Source: Candidatus Methylomirabilales bacterium
Lineage (GTDB): Bacteria; Methylomirabilota; Methylomirabilia; Methylomirabilales; CSP1-5
Length of the DNA stretch: 13,898 bases
NCBI GenBank assembly: GCA_046758505.1
Contig: JBHIAH010000069.1
Location: 1 to 13,898, forward strand
Direction of reading: 5' to 3'
Position numbers and translations under genes: made by a program. Below, piece after piece: positions 1,148 through 13,846 of the stretch (within the stretch, counting starts at the first letter, position 1; each line of letters opens with the position of its first letter). Under the pieces are notes generated by a model. It did no database searches, was not told the DNA's origin, and was given only the letters and a program-made list of their open reading frames with translations.

Positions 1148-1657
1148 TTATTCAATGAGCACGAGGCCCTGACCTCCTCCCACCGCCTCCCCTTCATTGA
1201 CCCGTATCTCTCGGACCGTTCCGGCGCCCGACGCGCGGAGCTCGTTCTCCATCTTCATGGCCTCGACCACGACGACCCCATCGCCGGGGCCCACCTGATC
1301 CCCCACCGCCACCAGCAGACGCACCACCTTGCTCGGCATCGGGGCGGCGATCAGCTGCCGTCCCTCCTGTCCCGCTGTCGCCTTACGGCTGACCGCCTTC
1401 AGGCGTCGCTCCCGTTCGGTGAGGATGTCCACATCGTGGACCTCCCCCTTGATTCCCACTGCATAAGGATTCACGCCTTTGATGATATCCACGTCAAAGG
1501 AGGTTCCATCCAGAAGAAGCGAGTAGTTGTGATCGGAGATCTTGATGCAGTCGACCTGCCAGCTCACCCCGTCCACGGAGAGACGGAAGAGGGAGCCTTC
1601 CGGATCTCCAACCTCAATCCGGTACTCCTGCCCGCCACTCTGCGCACTAAATTGCAC
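1148..1657 (-). CDS. accB: Biotin carboxyl carrier protein of an acyl-CoA (propionyl/acetyl-CoA) carboxylase
   Basis: C-terminal biotinyl domain with APMP and the EAMKMENEL biotinylation motif. GTG start preceded by GGAGGTGG SD. Confidence 0.93.
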
Positions 1658-1676
1658 GAACCACCTCCGGTGTCCC

Positions 1677-1804
1677 GGTTCATGGTTGATGGTTCATGGT
1701 TCATGGTTAGCGATTCTGGACGAGCGTTGAGGTGAGATCTCCAGATCGCTGCCCTCCCTATGACCGCATCAAAACTCTGAACCCTGAACTATGAACCATG
1801 AACG
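1677..1804. repeat. Inverted heptamer tandem-repeat element B (GGTTCAT x4-5 ... ATGAACC x4)
   Basis: ggttcat-ggttgat-ggttcat-ggttcat-ggttagc (1677-1711) and ctgaacc-ctgaact-atgaacc-atgaacg (1777-1804). Confidence 0.9.
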
Positions 1805-1809
1805 ATCTT

Positions 1810-3312
1810 TTAGCTTCTTCTCAGGGCGTCGTGGCGGGCCGCCATGGTCCACGCCGAGCCGGCGGCGGTGCCACCCGTCGGAGCCGCCGGCTTCCGCTCC
1901 CGCTCCATGCGGTAGGTATGGATCGCGGCCGCCACAACCGCGACGTCGCGGTACCGAGGCTCGCCGACCCCCTTCTGCTGCAAGAAGGTGTCGATGAACG
2001 TGGTGTCCGCGTCTCCCTCGAGGAACCGCGGATCCGCCATGACCTCAACGAGGAAGGAGACGCTGGTCTTGATGCCGGCAATGAGGTAATCCTGCAGGGC
2101 CCGCCGCACCCGGCTGATGGCTTCGTGCCGATCCTTTCCCCAGGCAACGAGCTTGGAGATGAGCGGATCGTAATAGATCGGCACCTCGAACCCTTCGTAG
2201 ACCCCGGTGTCATCCCGAATGCCCGGCCCCCCGGGGGGACGATAGAGGGTGATCCCCCCGGGGAAGGGGGCAAAGTTGTTGCTCCGGTCCTCGGCGTAGA
2301 TTCGACACTCGATCGCGTGGCCGTGCGTCTTGAGTTCTTCCTGGCGGAGGGTGAGACGCTCCCCGGCGGCGATCCGGATCTGATTCTTGACCAGGTCGAT
2401 CCCGGTGGTGAGCTCGGTCACCGGATGCTCCACCTGCAGCCGCGCGTTGATCTCGAGGAAATAAAAATTCCGGTCGGCATCAACCAGGAACTCGATGGTC
2501 CCCGCATTCCGGTACCCGCACCCGCGGGCGAGGGCCACGGCGGCTTCCCCCATCTGCTTGCGGAGCTCAGGCGTCATGAAGGGAGAGGGGGCCTCTTCCA
2601 CCACCTTCTGATGGCGGCGCTGCAGCGAACACTCGCGCTCGCCCAGGTAGAGGGTGTGGCCGGTGGGATCGGCCAGGACCTGCATCTCGATATGCCGTGG
2701 ACGGATCAGGTATTTCTCGAGGAAGACGGCGGCATCCCCGAAGGAGGACTGGCCCTCCGAGCGCGCGGCGCGGATGGCCGATTGAAGCTCGACCGGGTCT
2801 TGCACCACCCGCATCCCTTTCCCTCCGCCCCCTGCCGCTGCCTTGACGAGGAGGGGAAAGCCGATCTCGGGCGCCCGGCGGAGGATCTCTTCATCGCTCA
2901 GATCCTCGTCAGTCCCGGGGACGGTGGGGACCCCAACCTGCTTGGCCAGACGCCGCGAAGCTGTCTTGGACCCGCTCAACCGCAGGGTTTCAGAGGAGGG
3001 ACCGATGAAGACGACCCCCGCCCGTTCGCAGGCCTCGGCAAACGTCGGGTTCTCAGCGAGGAAGCCATAGCCGGGATGAATGGCCTCGGCCTGGCTCTGC
3101 CGGGCCACCTCGAGGATCCGGTCTACCCGGAGGTAGCTCTCGGCCGAGGGAGGGGGACCCACCCGGTAGGCCTCATCCGCCTTCCGCACGTGAAGGGCCG
3201 AGCGGTCGGCGTCGGAGTAGATCGCCACCGTCCGGACCCCCATCTCGCGGCAGGCCCGGATCACTCGCACCGCGATCTCCCCACGATTGGCGATCAGAAT
3301 CTTGTTAAACAT
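1810..3312 (-). CDS. accC: Biotin carboxylase subunit of acyl-CoA carboxylase
   Basis: MFNKILIANRGEIAVR start, HPGYGFLAEN, KAAAGGGGKGMR ATP-grasp loop, ERECSLQRRHQK, FLEINARLQVEHPVTE, ECRIYAED and YYDPLISKL. Confidence 0.97.
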   Translation of the reverse strand: MFNKILIANRGEIAVRVIRACREMGVRTVAIYSDADRSALHVRKADEAYRVGPPPSAESYLRVDRILEVARQSQAEAIHPGYGFLAENPTFAEACERAGVVFIGPSSETLRLSGSKTASRRLAKQVGVPTVPGTDEDLSDEEILRRAPEIGFPLLVKAAAGGGGKGMRVVQDPVELQSAIRAARSEGQSSFGDAAVFLEKYLIRPRHIEMQVLADPTGHTLYLGERECSLQRRHQKVVEEAPSPFMTPELRKQMGEAAVALARGCGYRNAGTIEFLVDADRNFYFLEINARLQVEHPVTELTTGIDLVKNQIRIAAGERLTLRQEELKTHGHAIECRIYAEDRSNNFAPFPGGITLYRPPGGPGIRDDTGVYEGFEVPIYYDPLISKLVAWGKDRHEAISRVRRALQDYLIAGIKTSVSFLVEVMADPRFLEGDADTTFIDTFLQQKGVGEPRYRDVAVVAAAIHTYRMERERKPAAPTGGTAAGSAWTMAARHDALRRS

Positions 3313-3460
3313 CGTTCATGGTTGATGGTTCATGGTTCACAGAGAAAGACCGGATCCCTTCTGTTCTGCAGCACCATCGCATCTCGTCCCCTCACACTCT
3401 CCTACGCCCACATCGCGCGCTTTTCCGCCACCGTGAACTGTGAACTATGAACGGTGAACG
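3313..3460. repeat. Inverted heptamer tandem-repeat element C
   Basis: cgttcat-ggttgat-ggttcat-ggttcac (3313-3340) and gtgaact-gtgaact-atgaacg-gtgaacg (3433-3460). Confidence 0.9.
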
Positions 3461-3475
3461 AGCGCGCGGAGGGCG

Positions 3476-5029
3476 CTAGAGGGGGATGTTGCCGTGCTTC
3501 TTGGGGGGGTTGGTGTCCCGCTTGGTGGCCGTCATCCGCAGGGCATTGATCAGCCGGGGGCGGGTCTCCTTTGGCTCGATGACCTCGTCGATGTATCCTC
3601 GCTCTGCCGCCACGTACGGGTTTGCAAATTTGTCCTTGAATTCATTGACCCGCTCGGCCCGGAAGGCCTCGACGTCCGTCGCCTTCCCCAACTCGCGGCG
3701 ATACAGGATGTTCACCGCCCCCTCGGGCCCCATCACCGCGATCTCCGCCGTCGGATAGGCGAGATTGTAATCGGCCCGCATGTGCTTGGATCCCATGACG
3801 CAGTAGGCGCCCCCATAGGACTTGCGGGCGATGACCGTCAGTTTCGGCACCGTGGCCTCGCCGTAGGCGAAGAGGAGCTTGGCCCCGTGCTTGATGATGC
3901 CGCCGTGTTCCTGGGCCGTCCCGGGAAGATACCCCGGAACGTCCTCGAAGGTGATGATGGGGATGTTAAAGCAGTCGCAGAAGCGGATGAAGCGGGCGGC
4001 CTTGATCGACGAGTTGATATCGAGGCAGCCGGCCAACACCATCGGCTGGTTGGCCACGATGCCCACCGGTCGACCGTCCAGCCGGGCGAAGCCGATGACG
4101 ATGTTTTGGGCGAGATGTTCCTGCACCTCGAAGAAGTCACCGTCATCCACGACCAGCTGGATCAGCGCCTTCATGTCGTACGGCTTGTTGGGATTGTCGG
4201 GGACCAACGTGTTGAGGGCTTCCTCCATCCGGTGGGGATTGTCGGTCGGCTGTCGCCGCGGCGGGTCGTCCAGGTTGTTCTGCGGGAGAAAGCTGAGGAG
4301 CTCCCGGATCGTGAGGACGCACTCTTCTCCAGAATCCACGGCGAAGTGGGCTACCCCCGAGGTGGCATTGTGGGTCATCGCCCCCCCGAGCTCCTCAAAG
4401 GTCACCTCTTCTTGGAGGACCGTCTTGATCACGTCGGGGCCGGTCACAAACATGTAGCTTTTCCCCTTCACCATGACGACAAAGTCCATCAGGGCGGGCG
4501 AATAGACGGCCCCTCCCGCGCAGGGTCCCATGATCGCCGTAATCTGGGGGATCACCCCGGAGGCCAGCACGTTTCGCAAGAAGATGTCGGCATACCCGGC
4601 CAGGGAGTCCACCCCCTCCTGGATCCTGGCCCCGCCCGAGTCGTTGAGGCTGATGAGCGGAACGCCCATCTTCACCGCCAGGTCCATGACCTTGCAGATC
4701 TTCTCGGAGTTCGCCAGGCTTAAGGTCCCCCCAAAGCTGGTGAAGTCCTGGGCAAAGACGTAGACCGCCCGGCCGTCGATCGTGCCGTACCCGGTGACCA
4801 CCCCGTCTCCCGGGATCCTCTGCTGTTCCATCCCAAAGTCGGTGCAGCGGTGGGTGACCAACATGTCCAGTTCGGTGAAACTTCCGGGATCGAGGAGGAG
4901 ATCCAACCGTTCGCGCGCGGTGAGTTTGCCGGCCTGGTGCTGCCGCTCGATCCGCTCCGGACCTCCACCAGCGAGCGCCGCTTCCTTTCGCCGCCGAAGC
5001 TCTTTGAGTCTGTCTTCGAGAGACATCAC
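3476..5029 (-). CDS. pccB: Propionyl-CoA carboxylase beta chain / acyl-CoA carboxyltransferase
   Basis: [64 protein letters not shown] and C-terminal [10 protein letters not shown]. Start is GTG 5029 or ATG 5026, with GGGGAGGG SD upstream. Confidence 0.96.
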
Positions 5030-5137: not shown

Positions 5138-5153
5138 TGGCATAACTGTTGCA
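5138..5153 (+). promoter_or_regulatory. Sigma-54 (RpoN) -24/-12 promoter
   Basis: TGGCAT-AACTG-TTGCA matches TGGCAY-N5-TTGCW with exact GG-N10-GC spacing, 41 nt upstream of the response regulator ATG. Confidence 0.75.
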
Positions 5154-5194
5154 AACGCCGTCAAAGGACGTGGAGGCACGAGGAAGCAAAGGAC

Positions 5195-5572
5195 ATGGCG
5201 ACCATATTAGTCGTCGAAGACAATCCCATGAATCTCGAGCTGGCCCGGGATGTTCTCGAAGCCAGGGGATACCGGGTGCGGGGGACCGCCTCGGCGGCAG
5301 AGGCGCTGGACGTCCTGAAAGACACCTTGCCGGATCTCATCCTCATGGACGTGCAGCTCCCCGGGCTCGATGGGCTCGAGCTCACGCGGACCTTGAAACA
5401 AGACCCGCGCACGCGGGACATCATCGTCCTCGCCCTGACCGCCCACGCGATGAAGGGAGACCGGGAGCGGATCCTCCGGGCCGGCTGCAGCGGCTATATC
5501 GCGAAGCCGATCGACATCCAGGTCCTCTGCCGGGAGGTGGCACGATACCTGCCGCTGCCCGACGACGGCTGA
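5195..5572 (+). CDS. Single-domain response regulator receiver (DivK/CheY-like), 125 aa
   Basis: ILVVEDNPMN acidic pocket, PDLILMDVQLPGLDG (phospho-Asp52), ALTAHAMKGD and GYIAKPI. ATG 5195 with AAAGGA SD. The track's 4850 start overlaps pccB and is rejected. Confidence 0.93.
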   Translation: MATILVVEDNPMNLELARDVLEARGYRVRGTASAAEALDVLKDTLPDLILMDVQLPGLDGLELTRTLKQDPRTRDIIVLALTAHAMKGDRERILRAGCSGYIAKPIDIQVLCREVARYLPLPDDG

Positions 5573-5574
5573 TC

Positions 5575-5722
5575 CGTTCATGGTTCATCGTTCATGGTGC
5601 AGGGCGATGCGCATACCCGGGCCTCTCGGCTCTGAACCCCGACCCGCTTTCTATGAGCGGTCAGCGCATTCGAGCGGCTGACCGCCGACTCCTCACCGCG
5701 TGCCGACACCCGATAGCCGATT
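5575..5722. repeat. Degenerate heptamer-repeat element D (GGTTCAT family followed by GCYGANN family)
   Basis: cgttcat-ggttcat-cgttcat-ggtgcag (5575-5602). Weak right arm ctgaacc-ccgaccc..atgagcg (5632-5659). Then gctgacc-gccgact-cctcacc..gccgaca-cccgata-gccgatt (5677-5722). Confidence 0.7.
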
Positions 5723-5748
5723 GCGCGCTGCTGTTGCCGATTTTCCCG

Positions 5749-5776
5749 TTGACATCCCCACCTTCGAGCCTACAAT
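5749..5776 (+). promoter_or_regulatory. Sigma-70 promoter of tRNA-Leu
   Basis: TTGACA (5749-5754), 16 nt, TACAAT (5771-5776), ending 9 nt before the tRNA 5' end. Confidence 0.85.
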
Positions 5777-5785
5777 AAAAAAGAT

Positions 5786-5870
<85 letters not shown>

Positions 5871-6416: not shown

Positions 6417-7037
6417 ATGCGGAAACTCACGACGCTTATCGCCGCGGTTGCCTTGCTCGGCGCCTGCGCCAGCCAGCGACCCCTCTCCACGAGAGAACAA
6501 GGGGCCGTGACCGGAGCCGTCCTGGGGGCGGGGACGGGCGCGCTCATCGGAGGTGCTACGGGCGGCAATGCCGGGACGGGCGCCGCGATCGGGGCAGGCC
6601 TTGGCCTGCTGACCGGAGCCGTCGTCGGTGGAGCCATTGAGAACCAGCGTGGGGAGACGGCGTACCCGCCTCCTGGCGCGGTATCGCCGCAGCCAACCGT
6701 GGCGCCACCCCCCGGTCAGCCCCGGGCCGCCACCCCGCCGCCGAGCGGCGCCACCGTCGACCCGACCAAGGGACAGTTCGTCAACGGCACCCGATGGCGG
6801 GTGGAGGTTTTTGTTGACGCCGAGCCGCAGGGTCTGCAAAGCGCATCCCCGATCATGTTGCACCCCCAGGAGGCCCAGCCGTATAACCTCGACCTCGGCC
6901 CCCACCGCGTGATCGCCAGGGCCGTCGTGGACACCCAGTTTGGCACGCGCGCGGTCGGGCGATATGATCGCAGTATCCGAGTGGACCCTCGGGGCAGCGG
7001 GTGGACCCTGCGTTTCACCGAGGCCGACTTCCGGTAA
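6417..7037 (+). CDS. Lipoprotein with glycine-zipper (YMGG-like) region, Pro-rich linker and beta-rich C-terminal domain of unknown function, 206 aa
   Basis: ATG 6417 after AGGAGG (6403-6408). Lipobox LLGA-C17. GAVTGAVLGAGTGALIG...GAAIGAGLGLLTGAVVG GxxxG repeats. Confidence 0.88.
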   Translation: MRKLTTLIAAVALLGACASQRPLSTREQGAVTGAVLGAGTGALIGGATGGNAGTGAAIGAGLGLLTGAVVGGAIENQRGETAYPPPGAVSPQPTVAPPPGQPRAATPPPSGATVDPTKGQFVNGTRWRVEVFVDAEPQGLQSASPIMLHPQEAQPYNLDLGPHRVIARAVVDTQFGTRAVGRYDRSIRVDPRGSGWTLRFTEADFR

Positions 7038-7050
7038 GGGAGTGCCGGCG

Positions 7051-8265
7051 ATGCGAGGCGGGCAGAAGAGCACCGAGGGCATCCGCCGCATCGGAGACAA
7101 GCTGGCAGGGAGCCTCGAGCCCTGGCTTCACGCATGGGAGCGGAGCCGGATCCTGGCGGCCTACACCCAACTCCGCCACCGACTCTCGGGACCTCCGGTT
7201 CCCGGCATGCCCCCGATGACCAACCTAGATCCCTTTGTCGCGGTCTCGCTCGGCCTGCATCTTTTGGTGGCGCTCCTGATTTACCTCTTGGCCGCCCAGG
7301 CGCTCCCCTTGGCCGCGCGGCCCCCCATCAGCGTCCGCATTCTCGAGACCAAGGCGCAAGCCCCCGCCCCCGCGCGCGAACAGAAACCGATTCGCCGCGC
7401 GCGGAAGCGGAAGACCACGAAGAGGCCCCGGCAGCAGGCCAAACCGAGGCCTGCCCCTCCGAAGGTTCAGCCCAAGCCCCGGCCCACTCCACCGAAGCCG
7501 GTGCAGAAGCCCGTGCCGAAGCCGATCTTTACGCCGAAGGCCATCCCCCGCGTGGCACAGGTGGCGCCCCGCGTCCCCAGCCGGCTCCCCCAACCGTTGC
7601 CTAAAGTGGCCGTCGCTCCCCCGAAGGCGAGAGCCCCTTCCCCGAATCTCTTGCTGGCGCAAAAGGCGCTCCCACCGACGCCGGTGAAGCCCTTCGAGGC
7701 AGAAGCCCCACCCGCAGGGGCTCCGAGCGAGATCCCACGGTCACTCGCGACCCCCCCGCCCTCGCCGGCGGCAGCGGCCCCTGCCGAGATCGCGCCGCTC
7801 CCGGCCCCGAGCACGACCCCCTCGGAGACATCCCACGCCTCGGTCCCAAAAGAGTTGAGTAAAGCGACGCTCGAAGGATTCCAGCAGCCCACCGGCCCCG
7901 TGGTCGTCCCCGAGCGGTTTCTGAAGGGGGGAAAGCCGCAGACGACGGCGGGAGCAGCCGTGGCGCTCATCGATACCAGCGACCCGGACTTTACGGAATA
8001 TTTCGAGCTGATCAAGCGTCGGGTCTATGCCGCCTGGCGTTATCCCAAAGGGGTCCGCGGGGTCTACAAGGTCTCGGTGCGGTTCAACCTGGACCGGGCG
8101 GGGGCCGCCCACCAGGTCAAGGTGGTCCGCTCGACCAACGCGCGGCTGAACCAAAGCGCAGCCGAGGCCATGGACCGGGCATCCCCCTTTCCGCCGATCC
8201 CCGAGAAGTTCCGAGCCCTGGTCGGGCACCCCCTGACCCTCATCTTCACGGTGACGATCCAATGA
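7051..8265 (+). CDS. tonB: TonB/TolA-family energy transducer, about 404 aa
   Basis: ATG 7051 after GGGAG. Single TM helix with S-x3-H (VSLGLHLL), long Pro/Lys-rich spacer, and C-terminal YFELIKRRVYAAWRYP...VRFNLDRAG...ASPFPPIP TonB-C/TolA-like domain. Exact start uncertain. Confidence 0.88.
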   Translation: MRGGQKSTEGIRRIGDKLAGSLEPWLHAWERSRILAAYTQLRHRLSGPPVPGMPPMTNLDPFVAVSLGLHLLVALLIYLLAAQALPLAARPPISVRILETKAQAPAPAREQKPIRRARKRKTTKRPRQQAKPRPAPPKVQPKPRPTPPKPVQKPVPKPIFTPKAIPRVAQVAPRVPSRLPQPLPKVAVAPPKARAPSPNLLLAQKALPPTPVKPFEAEAPPAGAPSEIPRSLATPPPSPAAAAPAEIAPLPAPSTTPSETSHASVPKELSKATLEGFQQPTGPVVVPERFLKGGKPQTTAGAAVALIDTSDPDFTEYFELIKRRVYAAWRYPKGVRGVYKVSVRFNLDRAGAAHQVKVVRSTNARLNQSAAEAMDRASPFPPIPEKFRALVGHPLTLIFTVTIQ

Positions 8266-8293
8266 GCGCATGGACGTGAACCCCGGGTGACGC

Positions 8294-9601
8294 ATGCACA
8301 GGATGTGGTCGATAGTTCCGGTGCCGATCCTCCTCGTGGCGGTGGGCACGAGTTGGGCGGGGCCCCCCAAGCCCAAGGCGATCTTTTATTATGACGCACA
8401 GGGCAAGGTGGCCCGCCAGGAGCTCGACACCAACAGCGACGGCACAATCGACGTCCGGATCTTCTACGCCAAGGGCCAGATCGACCGCCAGGAAGAGGAC
8501 CGCGACTTCGACGGACGGGTCGATATGTGGTCGTTCTATCTCGGCGGGAAGCTCGACAAACAGCGAGTGGACACCAACAAGGATGGCAAACCCGATGCCT
8601 GGTACTTCCTCGGCCCCGACGGACAGGTGAACCGGGCCTGGAAGGACACCGACTTTGACGGCCACGTGGACTTCTGGGGGTATTACCGTGGCCAGCAACC
8701 GGAGCGGTACGAACAGGACCTGAACAAGGATGGCAAACCGGACCGGTTCCTCTTTTTTGTGCAGGGCACGCTCGCCCGCATGGAAGAGGCGGGGAACCGG
8801 GACGGCAAGATCACCCTGCGGGTATCCTATGACGCGCACGGCGTGGTCACCCGGAAGGAAGAGTTTCGCGGACGGAGGAGCACCCCCCACCTGGTGAGCA
8901 TTTACGAGGGAGGCACCCTCGCCCGCCAGGAAGAAGACAAAAACGGCGATGGCCGGATCGACCTGTGGCTCTACTACGACCGGCAGGAGCAGCTCGTCCG
9001 GCGGGAGGTCGACGGCAACGGGGATGGCAAGCCGGACCTGTGGGCCCATTACAGCAACGGTGAGGTCGTCCGGCAAGCCGAAGACCCCAAGGGGACCGGA
9101 CGGCCTACGCTGATCTACCACTTCGAGGGCGGAAAGCTCGTTCGGCGAGAAGAGGATCGCCAGGGGCGGGGGAAGCCGGACCTGATCGCATATTACGACC
9201 ACGGCACGATTCGGAAGCAGGTGGAGTTCCGCCACGCCGGATCCGAGCCAGACGTCATCACCGAGTTCGAGAACGGCAAGTCGGTCCGCCAGGATATCTC
9301 CACCAAGTCGAACGGCGTCCGGGATCTCCGCCGGATTTTCAAAGGCGATCAGGTCTTGCGGGAGGAGGCCGATACCAACGGCGACCGAAGGCCGGATGTG
9401 TGGGTCTTTTACAGGCAGGGGGTCAAGGTCACCCAAGAGGAGGACTCGAACTTCGACGGGCAGCCTGACGTCCGGTACCGCTTCCAGCGGGGGCGGGTGA
9501 CCGCAAAGGAGATTTTAACCGACCAGGGATCGGAGGCAACCCCTCAACGGACGATAGGGGAAAGGGGTCAACAATCAGCGGTCAGCACGCAGCAACAGTA
9601 A
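8294..9601 (+). CDS. Exported protein made of about 15 repeats of ~24 aa with Dx[DN]xDGxxD (putative Ca-binding) loops
   Basis: Signal peptide (…ILLVAVGTSWA|G). Repeats DTNSDGTID, DRDFDGRVD, DTNKDGKPD, DTDFDGHVD, DLNKDGKPD, DKNGDGRID, DGNGDGKPD and DSNFDGQPD, plus degenerate copies, each followed by xWxxYxxGxxxRxE-like strands. Start is 8294 or 8303. Confidence 0.87.
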   Translation: MHRMWSIVPVPILLVAVGTSWAGPPKPKAIFYYDAQGKVARQELDTNSDGTIDVRIFYAKGQIDRQEEDRDFDGRVDMWSFYLGGKLDKQRVDTNKDGKPDAWYFLGPDGQVNRAWKDTDFDGHVDFWGYYRGQQPERYEQDLNKDGKPDRFLFFVQGTLARMEEAGNRDGKITLRVSYDAHGVVTRKEEFRGRRSTPHLVSIYEGGTLARQEEDKNGDGRIDLWLYYDRQEQLVRREVDGNGDGKPDLWAHYSNGEVVRQAEDPKGTGRPTLIYHFEGGKLVRREEDRQGRGKPDLIAYYDHGTIRKQVEFRHAGSEPDVITEFENGKSVRQDISTKSNGVRDLRRIFKGDQVLREEADTNGDRRPDVWVFYRQGVKVTQEEDSNFDGQPDVRYRFQRGRVTAKEILTDQGSEATPQRTIGERGQQSAVSTQQQ

Positions 9602-9776
9602 CGCTTTCAGCTATCAGCAGTCAGCTGTCAGTAATCATAGGCCAACAGCGAGAAGGCCGGAAAGCGAGAACGCGAGGAGGCTGAGAGGATTATCAGCCCT
9701 TGGCCTTCCAGCCTGCTAGCCTCCCAGCATTCCAGCGGCTGATTGCTGACCGCTCAGTCATTGCTGACGGCTGATA
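9566..9776. repeat. Nested inverted tandem-repeat element E (outer NNTCAGC/GCTGANN heptamers, inner GCNRGAAG/CTTCCAGC-like octamers)
   Basis: Outer left arm 9566-9632, inner left 9648-9687, inner right 9705-9736, outer right 9738-9776. Confidence 0.85.
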
Positions 9777-9798
9777 TAGGGGCCAGCGGGGGAGTTCG

Positions 9799-11316
9799 AT
9801 GCCGAAGGGTCACTACATAGCGTTCCTGGTGATCGTGGGGCTCCTGATTTCAGGATGCGCCACCACGACAGGCACCGGGACGGCGCAGACCCCACCGTCT
9901 CACGGGGGCCGGTCGTCGGTGGGGCTCGGCGTCAGCGGGGGGACCGGGGGCTTCGGCGTCTCGTCCGGCGTGGCGATCTCCCCCAACCAGGATCCCGTCG
10001 CGAATTCTGCCATGATGGGAGCGGCCATCGGGGCCCTCGGCGGGCCGATCGGCCTCGGGGTGGGGGCGCTCTTGGGATACTTCCACGGGCTGAACGCGCG
10101 GAAACGGATGGAGAAACAAGCCCGGTCAGAGATGCTCCGACAAGAGCAGATCGACAAGATGCTCGAGCAGCAGATCGAGGCCAAGCGGCAAGGAGGGAGC
10201 AGCGGGATCATCCTCCTCGAGGATCACCTGGCGCCGGAGCGTTCCGTCGCTCAGACCGCGCCAGCCGGTGCTTCTTCCTCATCATCCGGAGAGGGGCTCA
10301 TCGAGCTAACCGATCACCTCACCCCGCCCAAGCCCCAAAGCGCATCCGTCGCGGCTCAACAGACCCCGAGGCCGGCGCCGGCAGGCGCAGTGCAGGCCCC
10401 CGGAAGCGCAACGGGATTGGCGGTTTCCAAAGAGGAGGACGAGGCAACGCGGAGGCTCGAAGCGGAGATCGCGGCTGCCCGGGAGCGGAAGCGAAAGCTG
10501 GTCGCTCACCTCAAGAGTGCTCCGGCCGGTGGGGATCCGGCGCGGAGCGCGGGCAGTCCCGCTCCCCCGCCGCTCCCGGCGATCGACCCGGAAGGATTCC
10601 GGCCGATATACGCGGGGGGGACGCTCATCCGGAAGGAACGGGATGTGAACGGGGATGGCAAGCCGGACATCCTTCGATACTATGACGGAACCGGGAAGCT
10701 CCTCCGCCAGGAAGAGGACAGCCGTCTCACGGGTCACATCGACACCCGGACTTTTTATGAGGCCGGCCACCCGGTCCGCAAGGAATCCGATACCAACGGA
10801 GACGGAAGGGTCGATCTCTGGGCCTTCTATGACGCGGCGGGGGACCTCGTCCGTACCGAGGCCGACACCGACCACGATGGCCGGCGAGATCGCGTAATTC
10901 GATACGCCAAAGGAGAGATGGAAGAAGAGGAGCGCTACAGCGCAGACCTCGATTCCCCCCAGATGGTCATCACCTATGCCAAGGGTCACCCGGCCCGCAA
11001 GACAGAGGACACGGACAAAGACGGCCGCATCGATCGGGTGACCGAGTACGACGGGGCGGGCCATGTCACCAAGGTCTCCCGGAACCCCTCCGGAGACGGC
11101 ACCTTGACCCTCTTTGCGTACTACCAGCCGGAGACCGGAGACGTCCTGCGGGAAGAGGAGGATCTGAACGGGGACCGCAGGATTGATGTGATCTCGTATT
11201 ACGAAGGGGGCCGCCTCGTCCGGCGGGAGTTCTTTGAGCTTCCCGAGGTCGCCGCGCTCAAACCGCGCCTCTCGATTCCACACTTGCCGTCGAATGCGGA
11301 GCAACAGCAACCATGA
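9799..11316 (+). CDS. Lipoprotein with glycine zipper, predicted coiled coils and about 8 C-terminal Dx[DN]xDGxxD repeats, 505 aa
   Basis: GGGGAG SD; lipobox LISG-C20; GAAIGALGGPIGLGVGALLG; repeats DVNGDGKPD, DTNGDGRVD, DTDHDGRRD, DTDKDGRID, DLNGDRRID and degenerate copies. Confidence 0.88.
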   Translation: MPKGHYIAFLVIVGLLISGCATTTGTGTAQTPPSHGGRSSVGLGVSGGTGGFGVSSGVAISPNQDPVANSAMMGAAIGALGGPIGLGVGALLGYFHGLNARKRMEKQARSEMLRQEQIDKMLEQQIEAKRQGGSSGIILLEDHLAPERSVAQTAPAGASSSSSGEGLIELTDHLTPPKPQSASVAAQQTPRPAPAGAVQAPGSATGLAVSKEEDEATRRLEAEIAAARERKRKLVAHLKSAPAGGDPARSAGSPAPPPLPAIDPEGFRPIYAGGTLIRKERDVNGDGKPDILRYYDGTGKLLRQEEDSRLTGHIDTRTFYEAGHPVRKESDTNGDGRVDLWAFYDAAGDLVRTEADTDHDGRRDRVIRYAKGEMEEEERYSADLDSPQMVITYAKGHPARKTEDTDKDGRIDRVTEYDGAGHVTKVSRNPSGDGTLTLFAYYQPETGDVLREEEDLNGDRRIDVISYYEGGRLVRREFFELPEVAALKPRLSIPHLPSNAEQQQP

Positions 11317-12524
11317 GTCGGCCCACCATCTTCGCCCTGTGTTTCTCGTGCGTCGTCCTCGGCCTCACCCCCGCCTGGGGCGTCGAGACGGGCACGCGCG
11401 TCACGATCGGTATCGAGGCCCCAGACGACGGGGCAACCATTACCGGACCGAGCCAGGTCACCATACGCGGCCAGGCCCGCGCCTCGCGGGACTACAGGCC
11501 GGCCCAGTTCGACCTCATGCTGATTCTGGACACCTCGGGAAGCACCCGGGCCCCAGCCGGGGTGCAGACCGTGGGCGGGTTCGGCAACAACGCGTCGATC
11601 CTGGCGGCAGAAGTGACCGCAGCGGAGCGCCTCCTCGAAAGGCTGGATCCCAGGAGCACCCTGGTCGGGATCATCACCTTCGCCGGTGCCTATAACCACT
11701 TCACCGGCCAGGGGATCCCCAACAGTCCCGGCGCGTTCCTGGACCAGCCCCTGACGGCGAATTACCAGGATGTCCGGATGGCGCTTCGGCGCGTCCTCCG
11801 CCGCGGGCCCGAGGGGGGGACGAATATGGCGGCCGGCGTCCGCCTGGCCGTTCGAGAGCTGGCGGCCCTTGACGGGGCCATCAGCCATCCCCGACCGGAG
11901 AGCCGGAAGGTGGCCCTCCTTCTCAGTGACGGCTTCCCCACCCTGCCCTTCGGCCACGTGAATAGCATGGACCCGAGCGACGTGGAGGTGGCGATCCGCG
12001 CAGCCAGTGTCGCCTCCAGGGGCGAGATCACCATTCACACCTTCGCCCTGGGGATCGAGGCCCTCTCCGCGCCCTACGCCATGACGCAGACCGCCCGCAT
12101 GACGGGGGGGACGTTCACGCCGCTTCAAAGACCGGGAGAAATTATCGAGGTCTTGCCCAAGACCTCCTTTGCCGACCTCGATATGGTCCTCGTCACCAAT
12201 GCGACGACCGGCCAACCGGCCAGCGATGTGGCGGTCAATCCCGATGGCCGCTTTCAGGCCACGGTTCCCCTCACGTCCGGTGTCAACCAGATCGCCGTGA
12301 CCGTCCTTGCCACGGACGGGACGAAGGGCTCCGCCTCGGTGCGGGTGCGGTACACCAAGGGGGAGTCGCTGCACCTCGAGGTGCAACAGGAAGAGAAAGA
12401 CTTGGAGCTTCAGCTCCGCCAGCTCAAGGAGGAAAATCGCAAACTCGAAGAGGCCGTAAAGCAGAAACAGGCGGAAGAAGCGCGCAAGAAAGCCTTAGAG
12501 CTCGAGATCGGCCTCGACCGCTGA
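11313..12524 (+). CDS. Secreted von Willebrand factor A (VWA) domain protein with Ig-like segments and C-terminal coiled coil, 403 aa
   Basis: ATGA overlap with the upstream stop. Signal peptide (…LTPAWG|V). MIDAS DTSGS (D73), GGTNMAAG, LLLSDG, ITIHTFALG and ARMTGG. Glu/Lys/Leu-rich helical tail. Confidence 0.92.
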   Translation: MSRPTIFALCFSCVVLGLTPAWGVETGTRVTIGIEAPDDGATITGPSQVTIRGQARASRDYRPAQFDLMLILDTSGSTRAPAGVQTVGGFGNNASILAAEVTAAERLLERLDPRSTLVGIITFAGAYNHFTGQGIPNSPGAFLDQPLTANYQDVRMALRRVLRRGPEGGTNMAAGVRLAVRELAALDGAISHPRPESRKVALLLSDGFPTLPFGHVNSMDPSDVEVAIRAASVASRGEITIHTFALGIEALSAPYAMTQTARMTGGTFTPLQRPGEIIEVLPKTSFADLDMVLVTNATTGQPASDVAVNPDGRFQATVPLTSGVNQIAVTVLATDGTKGSASVRVRYTKGESLHLEVQQEEKDLELQLRQLKEENRKLEEAVKQKQAEEARKKALELEIGLDR

Positions 12525-12542
12525 GAGAGAGGAGGAGTCGTC

Positions 12543-13433
12543 GTGGTCACACGCCTATCGCGTCTCGGACGGGTCGTCATCATCGTCCTCCCGCTCCTGG
12601 TGCTACCGGTCGTGGGGTGGGGACAGAAGCCGCCCGCGCAGGTACCCGCACCGGCACAGCAGGGGCTCGTGCTGGGCACCCGCGACACCGTGTTCAGCCT
12701 CTACCTCAAGGGAGGTGTGGTGATGCACTTCATCACCCTCTGCTCCGTCTTGGCACTGGGGGTTTTTCTCGAGCGGCTGACCAACCTCCGCAAGCGGAAG
12801 ATTATCTCTCCCCAATTCCTCGAGGAGATCCGCCGCCACTGGTACCGCCGGGAGATCACAGAAGCCATCGCGGTCTGCAAGTCGTATAACATCGCCATGG
12901 CCCGGATCCTCCGGGCCGGCCTGCTCCGGTTTGCCCAGGGGATGAAGGAGGTCGAGCATGCCATCCAGGACGCCGGGCGGCGGGAGGCCACCCTCCTCCG
13001 CAAGAACCTCGGGCTCCTCGCCTTCCTGGCCAATATGGCCCCCATGCTCGGCCTCTTCGGGACGGTCCTCGGGATGATCAAGTCCTTCGACGCCATCGCC
13101 ATCTACGGCCAGCAGGGCAACGTGAAATTCGTGGCCGGCGGCATTGCCGAGGCCCTGATCACCACCGCATGGGGGCTCATGGTGGGGATTCCGGCGCTGG
13201 GCCTCTACTACTATTTTCGACGAAAGATCGAACTGCGGGTCACGGAAATGGAGGCGGTCTGCGTGAGCTTTCTGGAGGATCTGGCCGTCCACCAGGCGCA
13301 GGCGCCCTCGCCGGTGCGGGAACGAGCACCGGTGATGGCACCCACCCGCGCCCGGCCGACCGAGCGACGGGGGAATCAGCCTGAAAAGCGATGGGACGGG
13401 GCCCCAGGCTTTAAACCACTCTCGTCAGAGTGA
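12543..13433 (+). CDS. exbB: MotA/TolQ/ExbB proton channel protein
   Basis: GTG after AGGAGG. KGGVVMHFITLCSVLALGVFLER TM1, APMLGLFGTVLGMIKSF and GGIAEALITTAWGLMVGIPA. Confidence 0.94.
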   Translation: MVTRLSRLGRVVIIVLPLLVLPVVGWGQKPPAQVPAPAQQGLVLGTRDTVFSLYLKGGVVMHFITLCSVLALGVFLERLTNLRKRKIISPQFLEEIRRHWYRREITEAIAVCKSYNIAMARILRAGLLRFAQGMKEVEHAIQDAGRREATLLRKNLGLLAFLANMAPMLGLFGTVLGMIKSFDAIAIYGQQGNVKFVAGGIAEALITTAWGLMVGIPALGLYYYFRRKIELRVTEMEAVCVSFLEDLAVHQAQAPSPVRERAPVMAPTRARPTERRGNQPEKRWDGAPGFKPLSSE

Positions 13434-13450
13434 GGGGGAGGAGGTCCACG

Positions 13451-13846
13451 ATGCAGTTCGAAGAGCCGGACGAGGAGCAGGCAGGGATCAGCCTGACATC
13501 GTTGATCGACGTCGTCTTCCTCCTCCTCATCTTCTTTATGGTCACGTCGTCCTTCATCCAGTTCCAGCGAAAGCTGGACCTCGAGCTGCCGGAAGCCAAG
13601 GCGGCCGACGTGCAGCGGAAGGAGCGGAAGCCGATCACGATCGAGATGGACAGGGGGGGACGGATCACGCTGGACGGACAGGTGGTGAGCCTCCGGACGT
13701 TGGAGACGAGGCTCAAGCGATTTCAGGGGAAGCGCACCGCCGCCATCGTCCGGGCTGACCGACGCCTGACCCACGGGAAGGTCACGGCCGTCCTGGGGCT
13801 CTCCCGGGATGCCGGGATCCGCGATATCGCCATCGCGGTGAAATGA
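13451..13846 (+). CDS. exbD: ExbD/TolR biopolymer transport protein, 131 aa
   Basis: ISLTSLIDVVFLLLIFFMVT TM with the conserved Asp, LPEA and IVRADRRLTHGKV. ATG 13451 after GGAGG is preferred over GTG 13430. Confidence 0.94.
   Translation: MQFEEPDEEQAGISLTSLIDVVFLLLIFFMVTSSFIQFQRKLDLELPEAKAADVQRKERKPITIEMDRGGRITLDGQVVSLRTLETRLKRFQGKRTAAIVRADRRLTHGKVTAVLGLSRDAGIRDIAIAVK

Follow-up and report, generated by a model that had tools for sequence, protein, structure and literature searches.

In the window, by which we mean the whole stretch of 13,898 nucleotides analysed here, a complete MIDAS VWA domain splits a single bacterial Ig-like domain into two halves, and the VWA subfamily to which this protein belongs co-occurs in three lineages with ExbB, ExbD, a TonB-like arm and DxNxDG repeat proteins. 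Since the split-Ig/VWA topology is already known from integrins, bacterial pilus adhesins and ITIH1, it carries little weight alone, and the new element is the gene context: a VWA subfamily with its own ExbB/ExbD motor, TonB-like arm and two repeat proteins. Judged from sequence, this cassette points to an undescribed cell-envelope machine, and it forms a compact candidate which outlasts gene-order shuffling across the three lineages, whose members are abundant and mostly uncultured soil and groundwater bacteria. Motors of the ExbBD/TolQR kind are known to drive import, outer-membrane tethering and gliding. A 2025 survey states, in the portion available, that other outputs of these motors are still to be found (PMC12204202). 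The open-access literature yielded no description of the cassette or of the VWA family, and the supplements of that survey could list such loci.

The VWA protein and its split Ig-like domain

The VWA gene (11313..12524, on the forward strand, as are all features given below) encodes a chain of 403 residues, defined from the open reading frame, Pfam matches and an AlphaFold2 model, for which 665 cluster representatives were retrieved at E<=1e-30. An N-terminus resembling a signal peptide (residues 1-23; 11313..11381), recognised from sequence and family heuristics and carrying no conserved lipobox, is followed by the N-terminal half of the Ig-like domain (residues 29-58; 11397..11486; Big_7 match and model; strands labelled A, A' and B), the VWA domain with its full MIDAS (residues 66-283; 11508..12161; Pfam VWA_2, E 3.4e-9), the five-stranded C-terminal half of the Ig-like domain (residues 289-348; 12177..12356) and a helical tail (12366..12521). 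According to the family heuristics, an N-terminal hydrophobic stretch occurs in 166 of 240 homologs and a lipobox pattern in 7; a C-terminal TM helix was found in 1/240 and an SxxxH pattern in 4/240. The only cysteines lie at positions 10 and 13, and the mature chain is cysteine-free. The protein shows an export-type N-terminus and is predicted to be soluble, with no membrane anchor. It gave no match to NCBIfam, and database labels such as 'Mg-chelatase subunit ChlD' were set aside as generic VWA names.

The MIDAS comprises D73-x-S75-x-S77 (11529-11543), T170 (11820-11822) and D206 (11928-11930), and across 240 homologs DxSxS is kept in 231 (8 are gapped) and the threonine and the aspartate in 239 each; the intact MIDAS and the D73 numbering of an earlier, sequence-only reading are both correct in the 403-residue translation. 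That reading had also found the ADMIDAS-type acidic pair after DxSxS to be missing, and none of 226 VWA homologs carries one at +7/+8, the position we presume from integrin beta-3 numbering. The protein is best read as a putative metal-dependent ligand binder. An EF-hand-like DxNxDG loop lies 12 residues past the MIDAS aspartate in 160/226 VWA homologs and is missing from the query and from 87 of 88 Methylomirabilota and Binatia members.

Insertion of the VWA domain into a split Ig-like domain had been proposed from the sequence, and complementary profile halves, conserved flanks, predicted strands and joint structural alignments agree on this arrangement. When searched alone against Pfam, the N-flank matched Big_7 over positions 2-28 of its 70 at E 0.0046, short of the cut-off, and Gmad2 over 2-25 of 86 at E 0.07, and the C-flank passed the cut-off with Glucodextran_B (E 2.4e-7, positions 28-80 of 83) and also matched Big_9 over 35-87 of 89 and Cadherin-like over 37-79 of 89; the Glucodextran_B match recurs at E<=0.1 in 81 of 92 homologs. 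Of 240 homologs, 214 have both flanks (N-flank 222, C-flank 227), and their near-invariant residues are P37 (kept in 217/240), G53 (224/240), N296, G312, G323 and N325. The AlphaFold2 model (92 sequences, mean pLDDT 84.8, pTM 0.67) has ordered strands at 29-36, 41-44 and 48-58 before the VWA domain and at 289-296, 304-308, 313-319, 323-333 and 338-348 after it; the flanks of the earlier proposal are thus real, although their residue numbers were off by 2-4 (V30-A55, and a start at M291). With VIA-align, a single alignment took in both flanks for each of SpaC (Z 21.7, 262 aligned residues, rmsd 4.6, model 34-348), PitA (Z 20.7, 279 aligned, rmsd 5.8, model 32-349), RrgA (Z 17.1, 273 aligned, rmsd 6.2, model 33-348) and 4FX5 (Z 23.3, 257 aligned, rmsd 12.3, model 28-348), as against about 170-200 aligned residues for matches to the VWA domain only. 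Pairing of the strands of both halves in one sandwich is deduced from these alignments of the predicted model rather than read directly from contacts. Covariation lends weak backing to a single sandwich, with 5 of the top 60 pairs joining the N- and C-flanks against 2.4 expected and 1 joining the N-flank to the VWA domain against 8.4 expected, both counts being noisy (Meff 162).

The exit linker from helix alpha-7 to the Ig-like domain is of fixed length (P274 to N296 is 22 in 210/218 homologs) and the entry linker into the VWA domain is variable (13 in 135/221). A spliced-flank profile run against the genome and the fetched loci, a small set, retrieved no unsplit homolog (best independent E 0.42), and the Atlas gave only unnamed Myxococcota clusters at 0.97 and, for the C-flank, nothing at 0.9 or above. 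A likeness of the C-flank to TolB (phmmer E 2.7e-5) was rejected as a sum of short (S/N)PDG matches, no stretch of which was significant alone.

The tail (model helix 352-402, conserved in 38 close homologs) is a charged helix with leucine-zipper-like heptads, carrying L364, L371 and L378 at d and L368, N375 and V382 at a, and it ends in a K-x-L-E-L-E-I motif conserved among the same 38. This pattern of Leu at d and Asn at a suggests self-dimerisation, and the protein is probably dimeric. The tail had been proposed to connect the protein to the motor; a connection stands as gene neighbourhood but is unsupported via the tail, because of the zipper pattern, the short tail of the Rokubacteria-type clade and the presence of a separate TonB-like arm.

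The integrin-like topology cannot be claimed as a novelty, as the sequence-only reading had framed it, since RrgA/GBS104 and human ITIH1 are published and bacterial structures match both flanks best. The pilus tip adhesins RrgA, GBS104, SpaC and PitA (PDB 2WW8, 6M48, 7W6B) likewise hold a MIDAS-VWA within a split Ig-like domain; for RrgA/GBS104 the accessible text of PMC7893114 describes D1/D2 as split and D3 as inserted. They differ in their length of 800-900 residues, their sortase anchoring and their additional nested domains and arms (11-16% identity), whereas the present protein has a single Ig of Big_7/Glucodextran_B type, a zipper tail and a diderm motor cassette, and lacks both the sorting signal with TM helix and the multi-domain stalk of the sortase pilus adhesins. 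Another bacterial protein, the VWA protein 4FX5 of Catenulispora acidiphila, led the hits of all three fold searches (E 1.4e-14; model 28-348 aligned with chain 5-336) at 17-20% identity, and its rmsd of 12.3 A indicates a different relative placement of the domains.

The gene cassette and its distribution

The first cassette gene, lipoGZ (6417..7037), encodes a glycine-zipper lipoprotein recognised by Pfam Gly-zipper and its conserved position, with a start codon picked by the RBS. It is followed by a TonB/TolA-like transducer (7051..8265; Pfam, TIGR01352 and a motif in the translation), which has a TM helix with S-L-G-L-H (SxxxH), a Pro-rich linker and a conserved TonB_2/TonB_C C-terminal domain. 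Then come rep1 (8294..9601), an exported DxNxDG beta-hairpin repeat protein matching the Lsa25.6 family below cut-off, and rep2 (9799..11316), a lipoprotein (ISG-C20; alignment A6) built of a glycine zipper, a helical linker and C-terminal DxNxDG beta-hairpin repeats; both carry many EF-hand-like DxNxDG loops. The model of rep1 (pLDDT 86.1, about 32 short strands) predicts a long beta-meander, and Foldseek returned Rhs/YD shells and the single-layer OspA at low TM. The ATG of the VWA gene overlaps the rep2 stop codon (ATGA), and downstream lie genes for an ExbB/TolQ-like motor subunit (12543..13433; PF01618, E 9.6e-31; TIGR02796 and TIGR02797 matched below cut-off) and an ExbD/TolR-like subunit with a TM aspartate (LIDVVF; 13451..13846; PF02472, E 5.4e-27). 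The contig stops 52 bases past exbD and carries no TonB-dependent receptor, TolB or OmpA/Pal, genome matches to the last two lying on contig C1 and elsewhere; the cassette holds no outer-membrane barrel. An integrin-alpha analog among the neighbours was rejected, rep1 being a predicted beta-hairpin meander and no propeller; FG-GAP matches among the neighbours stayed below cut-off, and rep2 shares the repeat of rep1.

Cassette order is conserved across 10 Methylomirabilota loci, and rep2 lies immediately 5' of the VWA gene in 10/10 loci of this phylum with a full VWA gene. Among 80 Binatia-type loci (Ca. Binatia), which come from one query and are close kin, two different gene orders occur, with ExbD in 68, ExbB in 63, TonB in 49 and a repeat protein in 39, these counts being limited by short contigs. 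In Myxococcota the cassette is split over two loci: ExbB, TonB and a long rep1 occur together in 5/5 Myxococcota-type genomes, and in 4/5 a VWA paralog and a rep2-like gene are neighbours in tail-to-tail orientation, four of the six Myxococcota VWA regions having been chosen since the repeat gene was already visible alongside. Moreover, a glycine-zipper/OmpA lipoprotein (a Pal-like anchor) lies upstream of the VWA gene in both Myxococcota genes scanned.

A tree of 170 loci has a 94-member side, with a cassette gene in 82 (35/36 among loci of at least 9 kb), and a 76-member side (support 1.0), with a cassette gene in one (1/64 among loci of at least 9 kb). The latter is a group of stand-alone paralogs, many of them fused with a trypsin-like domain, and because it makes up about 45% of the tree loci (76/170) the VWA-in-Ig fold evidently works without a neighbouring motor. 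The designation of 76 of 78 loci as distant homologs without motor genes was withdrawn, these being mostly another paralog group, with the cassette-type paralog in the same genomes.

Three genomes of the same genus (92-99% complete) have no VWA, no rep1 and one ExbD match, and seven that carry the cassette have 2-4 ExbD matches. The genome's own tolQ-tolR-tolA-tolB-pal is separate, on contig C1, and a B12-cluster (BtuB-type) receptor with its own TonB-like gene lies on contig C9; no ExbBD is among the ORFs listed beside the genome's single receptor. In three relatives a gene with a secretin domain (E 7e-6, narrowly under the cut-off) lies 3' of ExbD. In family f2, rep1 occurs without a VWA gene in 15 of 18 genomes and, in the two regions read, follows a receptor and a TonB-like gene within a PQQ methanol dehydrogenase cluster.

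Possible functions of the cassette

The VWA protein is probably a component of the cassette motor system. As a whole explanation we favour, at slightly less than an even chance, that it serves as ligand-binding subunit in a dedicated trans-envelope system of Tol/Ton type, acting as a periplasmic clamp by a mechanism which is tentative and somewhat more apt to be wrong than right. Proton flow through the ExbB/ExbD motor would pull on the TonB-like arm, and the partner most likely to be engaged would be rep1, proposed because its gene directly follows the TonB-like gene in most loci. The VWA dimer, joined by its zipper tail, may grip an acidic side chain through Mg or Mn at the MIDAS. The likeliest candidate ligand is rep2, an outer-membrane lipoprotein translated together with the VWA protein. 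As happens in other I/A domains, a pull via the Ig-like domain to helix alpha-7 could toggle the VWA protein between holding and letting go. Overall, the system would provide either a tether to the outer membrane that is energised and can be released, or a step of envelope remodelling, resembling TolA-TolB-Pal with different parts.

Like Tol-Pal/Ton, the cassette brings together in one cluster an ExbB/ExbD-type motor, an SxxxH arm, a periplasmic beta protein and outer-membrane lipoproteins, but it has no TolB, Pal or receptor, the canonical tol-pal and a receptor-TonB pair lying elsewhere in the genome. The vWA-headed force transducers described in the available part of PMC12204202, of unknown function, are likewise syntenic with tolQR-like motor genes; they are tethered to the inner membrane, through either an SHLS or a transpore helix, and stand in for TonB or ExbD, whereas the present protein is predicted to be soluble, is Ig-inserted and coexists with TonB and ExbD. 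That the cassette is a further ExbBD/TolQR-powered machine, in which the TonB-like arm works a beta-integrin-like clamp and the Ig pull moves alpha-7 to switch MIDAS affinity, is improbable. If true, inside-out activation of the integrin type would have evolved independently here, with the proton motive force as its direct driver, in a system of seven genes that is compact enough to be reconstituted and is common to Methylomirabilota, Binatia and uncultured Myxococcota.

Mechanical regulation of the VWA protein is plausible by analogy; a force-gated Ig/VWA hinge is rather unlikely. Alternatively, the insertion could be a compact mount of the VWA head on a stalk, with the Ig as a rigid spacer of no allosteric role, which we judge unlikely, though not markedly so. 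Such nesting arises easily, as its recurrence in pilins, ITIH1, Sec23/24 and ArnB indicates, and both the absent ADMIDAS and the single conformation of the one model agree with a spacer. However, bacterial nested VWAs can switch, since open and closed forms of the GBS104 VWA differ in binding, according to the accessible text of PMC7893114, and a SpaC PDB entry is labelled 'open conformation'; the tight conservation of the exit linker also argues against a passive mount. A fixed exit-linker length would be expected from plain folding constraints as well, which counts against the hinge argument. The protein provides a single-chain, cysteine-free, 380-residue test case for the repeated origin of beta-I/hybrid-type allostery.

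The sequence-only reading had called the protein an adhesin, and it might serve as the surface adhesin of a minimal Agl-Glt-like adhesion/gliding machine, its exposed VWA coupling the motor to the substratum like CglB/CglD, a reading we consider distinctly unlikely. A proton motor, TonB/TolA-like arms and MIDAS-VWA proteins form the Myxococcus parts list in the available portions of PMC9946355 and bioRxiv 2023.10.19.562135, where CglD ('beta-integrin-like') also has DxDxDG Ca loops; over both flanks, the structures that match best are pilus tip adhesins, rep1 has a likeness below cut-off to the Lsa25.6 adhesin family of NCBIfam, and the near-cut-off secretin-domain gene would fit. However, CglB and CglD are described there as cysteine-rich lipoproteins held by GltABH barrels, and neither feature accompanies the VWA protein, whose N-terminus resembles a signal peptide and in which lipobox, TM helix and any other surface anchor are lacking. 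The cassette has one ExbD, not two, and no barrel, and the VWA protein matches nothing in NCBIfam. Nor does the genome have an OMP_myx_plus match over cut-off, the family to which we take GltA/B/H to belong. TIGR04565 gave one weak match below cut-off, with no positive control among 14 genomes.

An accessory role in TonB-dependent import of Ca or lanthanide ions or of protein cargo, in which the motor would power a receptor not linked to the cassette and cargo would be captured or passed on in the periplasm by the repeat and VWA proteins, seems about as doubtful as the adhesin. It draws on the abundant EF-hand-like loops of rep1 and rep2, the extra loop after the MIDAS aspartate and the single receptor with no adjacent ExbBD among the listed ORFs; the receptor-linked rep1 of family f2 points to import rather than tethering and counts against the trans-envelope system that we favour. 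Against import, the loci read contain no cassette-linked receptor, the extra loop is missing in the query and nearly all Methylomirabilota/Binatia members, and the three same-genus genomes without the cassette keep the receptor and one ExbD/TolR, which argues that the receptor is independent of the cassette motor.

The integrin resemblance is analogy, not homology, because ADMIDAS, PSI/EGF/TM parts and a propeller partner are all absent, and the caution of the sequence-only reading on this point was well placed. Integrin beta headpieces and ITIH1 (VWA in hybrid-1, PDB 6FPY) are alike in having the insertion after two main strands and a full MIDAS, and their helix alpha-7 runs into the sandwich as in our model (PMC7170535, from the sections available). 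The PSI domain, cysteine-rich EGF legs, TM helix and NPxY tail, given as hallmarks of integrin beta in the accessible part of PMC2784866, do not occur in the 403-residue protein, which also has no cytoplasmic tail or alpha-chain propeller. True homology to the integrin beta headpiece, by ancestry or transfer, is very improbable: the Foldseek top 50 includes many beta chains (385-433 alignment columns) and the insertion past the second main strand resembles the hybrid-1 layout of ITIH1/ITGB3 (PMC7170535, same sections), but identity in those Foldseek matches is 9-12%, with TM 0.31-0.38 and rmsd 13-15 A, rigid VIA-align alignment spans essentially only the beta-3 VWA core (178 and 174 residues) yet both pilin flanks, the mature chain lacks cysteines, and no integrin beta chain is among the 50 PDB sequences matching the family profile at E<=1. 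The Ig halves fall in ordinary bacterial Ig families, and the comparisons suggest that both they and the VWA domain side with bacterial families rather than with beta-I/hybrid.

A VWA domain within a split Ig-like domain

In the 403-aa VWA protein (11313-12524), Pfam places the VWA domain at residues 67-236 and Glucodextran_B at residues 286-345, the latter match being confined to positions 27-79 of the 83-position profile. On its own, the N-flank (residues 25-64) matched bacterial Ig profiles over their first third (Big_7 2-28/70, E 0.0046; Gmad2 2-25/86, E 0.07), while the C-flank matched the other two thirds (Glucodextran_B 28-80/83, E 2.4e-7; Big_9 35-87/89). Both flanks are kept in 214 of 240 distinct family proteins, drawn from 92 homologs and the 150 best of 665 cluster representatives (profile search, E<=1e-30). 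The AlphaFold2 model, based on the 92-sequence alignment (mean pLDDT 84.8, pTM 0.67), shows three strands ahead of the VWA domain, five behind and a long C-terminal helix. When compared by VIA-align with 48,161 chains, both flanks fell within single alignments for the top hit, Catenulispora 4FX5 (257 residues, rmsd 12.3), and for SpaC (262, 4.6), PitA (279, 5.8), RrgA (273, 6.2) and Sec23/24 (263, 11.0), with about 170-200 residues aligned for VWA-only matches and 178 and 174 for integrin beta-3 chains. Foldseek ranked the same bacterial entries on top, followed by ArnB, ITIH1 and many integrin beta chains (9-12% identity, rmsd 13-15 A). The complementary profile parts, the retained flanks and the joint-flank alignments bear out the sequence-only reading of a VWA domain inserted in a split Ig-like domain. 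From these alignments, we infer that the two halves pair with each other in one Ig-like domain; covariation is weakly consistent with this.

The MIDAS is highly conserved, with DxSxS in 231/240 homologs (eight gapped, one AxSxS) and the Thr and the Asp each in 239/240. The linker leading from helix alpha-7 to the Ig-like domain is of equal length in 210/218, and the entry linker in 135/221. Homologs P0078 and P0143 carry tandem VWA domains. A seeming VWA-ExbB fusion, P0045 (606 aa), has a junction that looks out of frame and is thus probably a frameshift artefact.

The resemblance to the integrin topology is real, though the topology was already known. In RrgA and GBS104, domains D1 and D2 are non-contiguous, with the vWA domain D3 inserted between the halves, and open and closed forms are stated for GBS104 D3, according to a review (PMC7893114); Myxococcus CglD is already termed beta-integrin-like in a preprint (bioRxiv 2023.10.19.562135). 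The split domain with an inserted VWA is thus a recurring design. Membership of the integrins is ruled out by the cysteine-free mature chain, the lack of a TM helix and the absence of the ADMIDAS-type acidic pair which, noted earlier for this protein, extends to all homologs compared (0/226). Nor is any integrin beta chain present in the 50 PDB sequences that the family profile matched. At exactly +12 from the MIDAS Asp, about where the ADMIDAS sits in integrins, 160/226 homologs (e.g. P0050, P0062, P0074) have an EF-hand-like Dx[DN]xDG loop, possibly an ADMIDAS analog; the query lacks this loop and it is lost in 87/88 Methylomirabilota/Binatia members.

The N-terminus reads, by eye, as a cleavable signal peptide. 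Of the 240 homologs, crude patterns flagged 7 with a lipobox, one with a C-terminal TM and 4 with SxxxH. In the tail heptads, position d is Leu (364, 371, 378) and position a is Leu, Asn and Val in turn (368, 375, 382), a pattern kept in 38 close homologs; Leu at d with Asn at a favours parallel dimers. Members of the Rokubacteria-type clade have a shorter tail. A terminal K-x-L-E-L-E-I-like motif, present in 134/240, could be a TonB-box-like strand.

The cassette and its distribution

The VWA gene is the fifth of seven co-oriented genes (6417-13846, +), encoding a glycine-zipper lipoprotein, a TonB-like arm, rep1, rep2, VWA, ExbB and ExbD, and its start overlaps the rep2 stop. The rep1 model (pLDDT 86.1, from 8 sequences) is a hairpin meander of about 32 short strands; a propeller fold was rejected, the matches being instead Rhs/YD shells and single-layer OspA at low TM-score. 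The rep2 (9799-11316) linker carries twice a conserved G-[LV]-I-x-[VL]-x-D-H-L-A-P-like motif, a candidate partner-binding or MIDAS-ligand site. By eye, the upstream genes (1148-5029, -; 5149-5572, +) resemble those for a biotin carboxyl carrier, a biotin carboxylase, a carboxyltransferase and a single-domain response regulator, and what is probably a tRNA gene or a pair of them (about 5693-5860) precedes the cassette. The source genome is 96.8% complete; a tolQ-tolR-tolA-tolB-pal operon lies apart from the cassette on contig C1, and a single receptor barrel on contig C9, beside cobalamin-type genes and then its own TonB-like gene (C9 neighbours named by eye from translations).

Close homologs of the VWA protein are labelled Ca. 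Methylomirabilales/NC10. Among 151 genomes of the phylum, the VWA profile matched in 13 (12 full length, one fragment) and rep1 in 27, namely the same 12 and 15/18 of family f2. Eleven regions were fetched; rep2 lies directly 5' of the VWA gene in all ten with the full gene, and ExbB-ExbD directly 3' in nine, occurring earlier in the cassette in the tenth. Seven VWA-gene carriers yielded 2-4 ExbD matches; three same-genus genomes lacking the VWA gene yielded one each and keep the receptor. Cassettes keep an ExbB/ExbD pair, but the pairs come from two subfamilies, one having an N-terminal extension and the other not, and lie at different positions (loci L107, at G035:C209, and L112/L180 versus L165/L189), which suggests motor replacement. 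In three relatives exbD is followed by the gene for an exported protein of 217 aa that weakly matches a secretin domain (L014:4260-4913, L015:11648-12304, L108:1551-2207), and in some a TRAP T-component gene comes next.

Eighty metagenome loci represent a second clade, for which NCBI cluster members give the labels Ca. Binatia or Deltaproteobacteria. Within the locus, ExbD occurs in 68 of them, ExbB in 63, TonB in 49 and a repeat gene in 39, the cassette genes falling into two arrangements. One or two exported coiled-coil genes, with no family named, lie head-to-head with the VWA gene in 63 of these (L165:5107-5898, L180:4121-5827).

A first GTDB contig scan gave 78 loci, 76 of them Myxococcota-type without a cassette neighbour. 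This spoke against a motor link but was reversed by whole-genome searches of five such genomes, which carry 2-6 VWA matches each; all five have ExbB, TonB and a 1,000-1,150-aa rep1 side by side and an ExbD match next to them, and in four a VWA paralog of about 440 aa faces a rep2-like gene. In a FastTree phylogeny of 170/182 loci (12 without a long VWA match were left out, and one duplicate locus was dropped beforehand), a cassette gene accompanies 82 of 94 members on one side, and the other side, of 76, has one weak hit. This linkage is a pattern rather than a statistical test, since related loci do not count as independent and the choice of four Myxococcota regions was guided by their neighbours. 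Stand-alone Myxococcota paralogs (L025-L102; P0062, P0064, P0095, P0098) are often some 700 aa long, the Ig-VWA-coil unit being fused to a trypsin-like domain at the N-terminus; they neighbour rph, a Ham1-family gene and an amidase, and are present twice at some loci. Nearby lies a conserved lipoprotein-like ORF of 237 aa without a Pfam match (L035:10299-11012, -; homologs in 41/78 loci).

A putative energised link to the outer membrane

What the data show is that the genes are linked, how the domains are laid out and that the motifs are conserved; we infer each further step of the mechanism that we consider most likely. The motor would pull the TonB-like arm, which would engage rep1, and the soluble, probably dimeric VWA protein would clamp an acidic partner in a Mg/Mn-dependent way, that partner probably being the lipoprotein rep2. 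The outcome would be an energised connection to the outer membrane that can be released, comparable in its working to TolA-TolB-Pal, yet distinct from Tol-Pal. The nearest described motor-vWA systems, as presented in PMC12204202, are membrane-tethered vWA transducers replacing TonB or ExbD, whereas the cassette VWA protein accompanies both. No account of the VWA-protein family or the cassette was found in the open-access literature searched. What is new is the cassette, a variant among proton-motor envelope systems, for which the function proposed here is putative.

Among rival explanations, the cassette as an import accessory draws support from family f2, where a methanol dehydrogenase cluster contains rep1 in a receptor-TonB-rep1 block. 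Alternatively, the VWA protein could be a surface adhesin, as in Agl-Glt (PMC9946355), or the Ig-VWA unit a rigid, non-allosteric stalk.

The f2 block, read in L105:806-17716 (G008:C1:107000-126000) and L106, runs in the order TonB-dependent receptor, TonB-like gene, rep1 homolog, FG-GAP/FlgT-like protein, PQQ dehydrogenase, SBP_bac_3 protein and cytochrome c, the last three of which we take to be xoxF-J-G-like. With its many DxNxDG loops, this rep1 homolog is a candidate for binding Ca or lanthanides.
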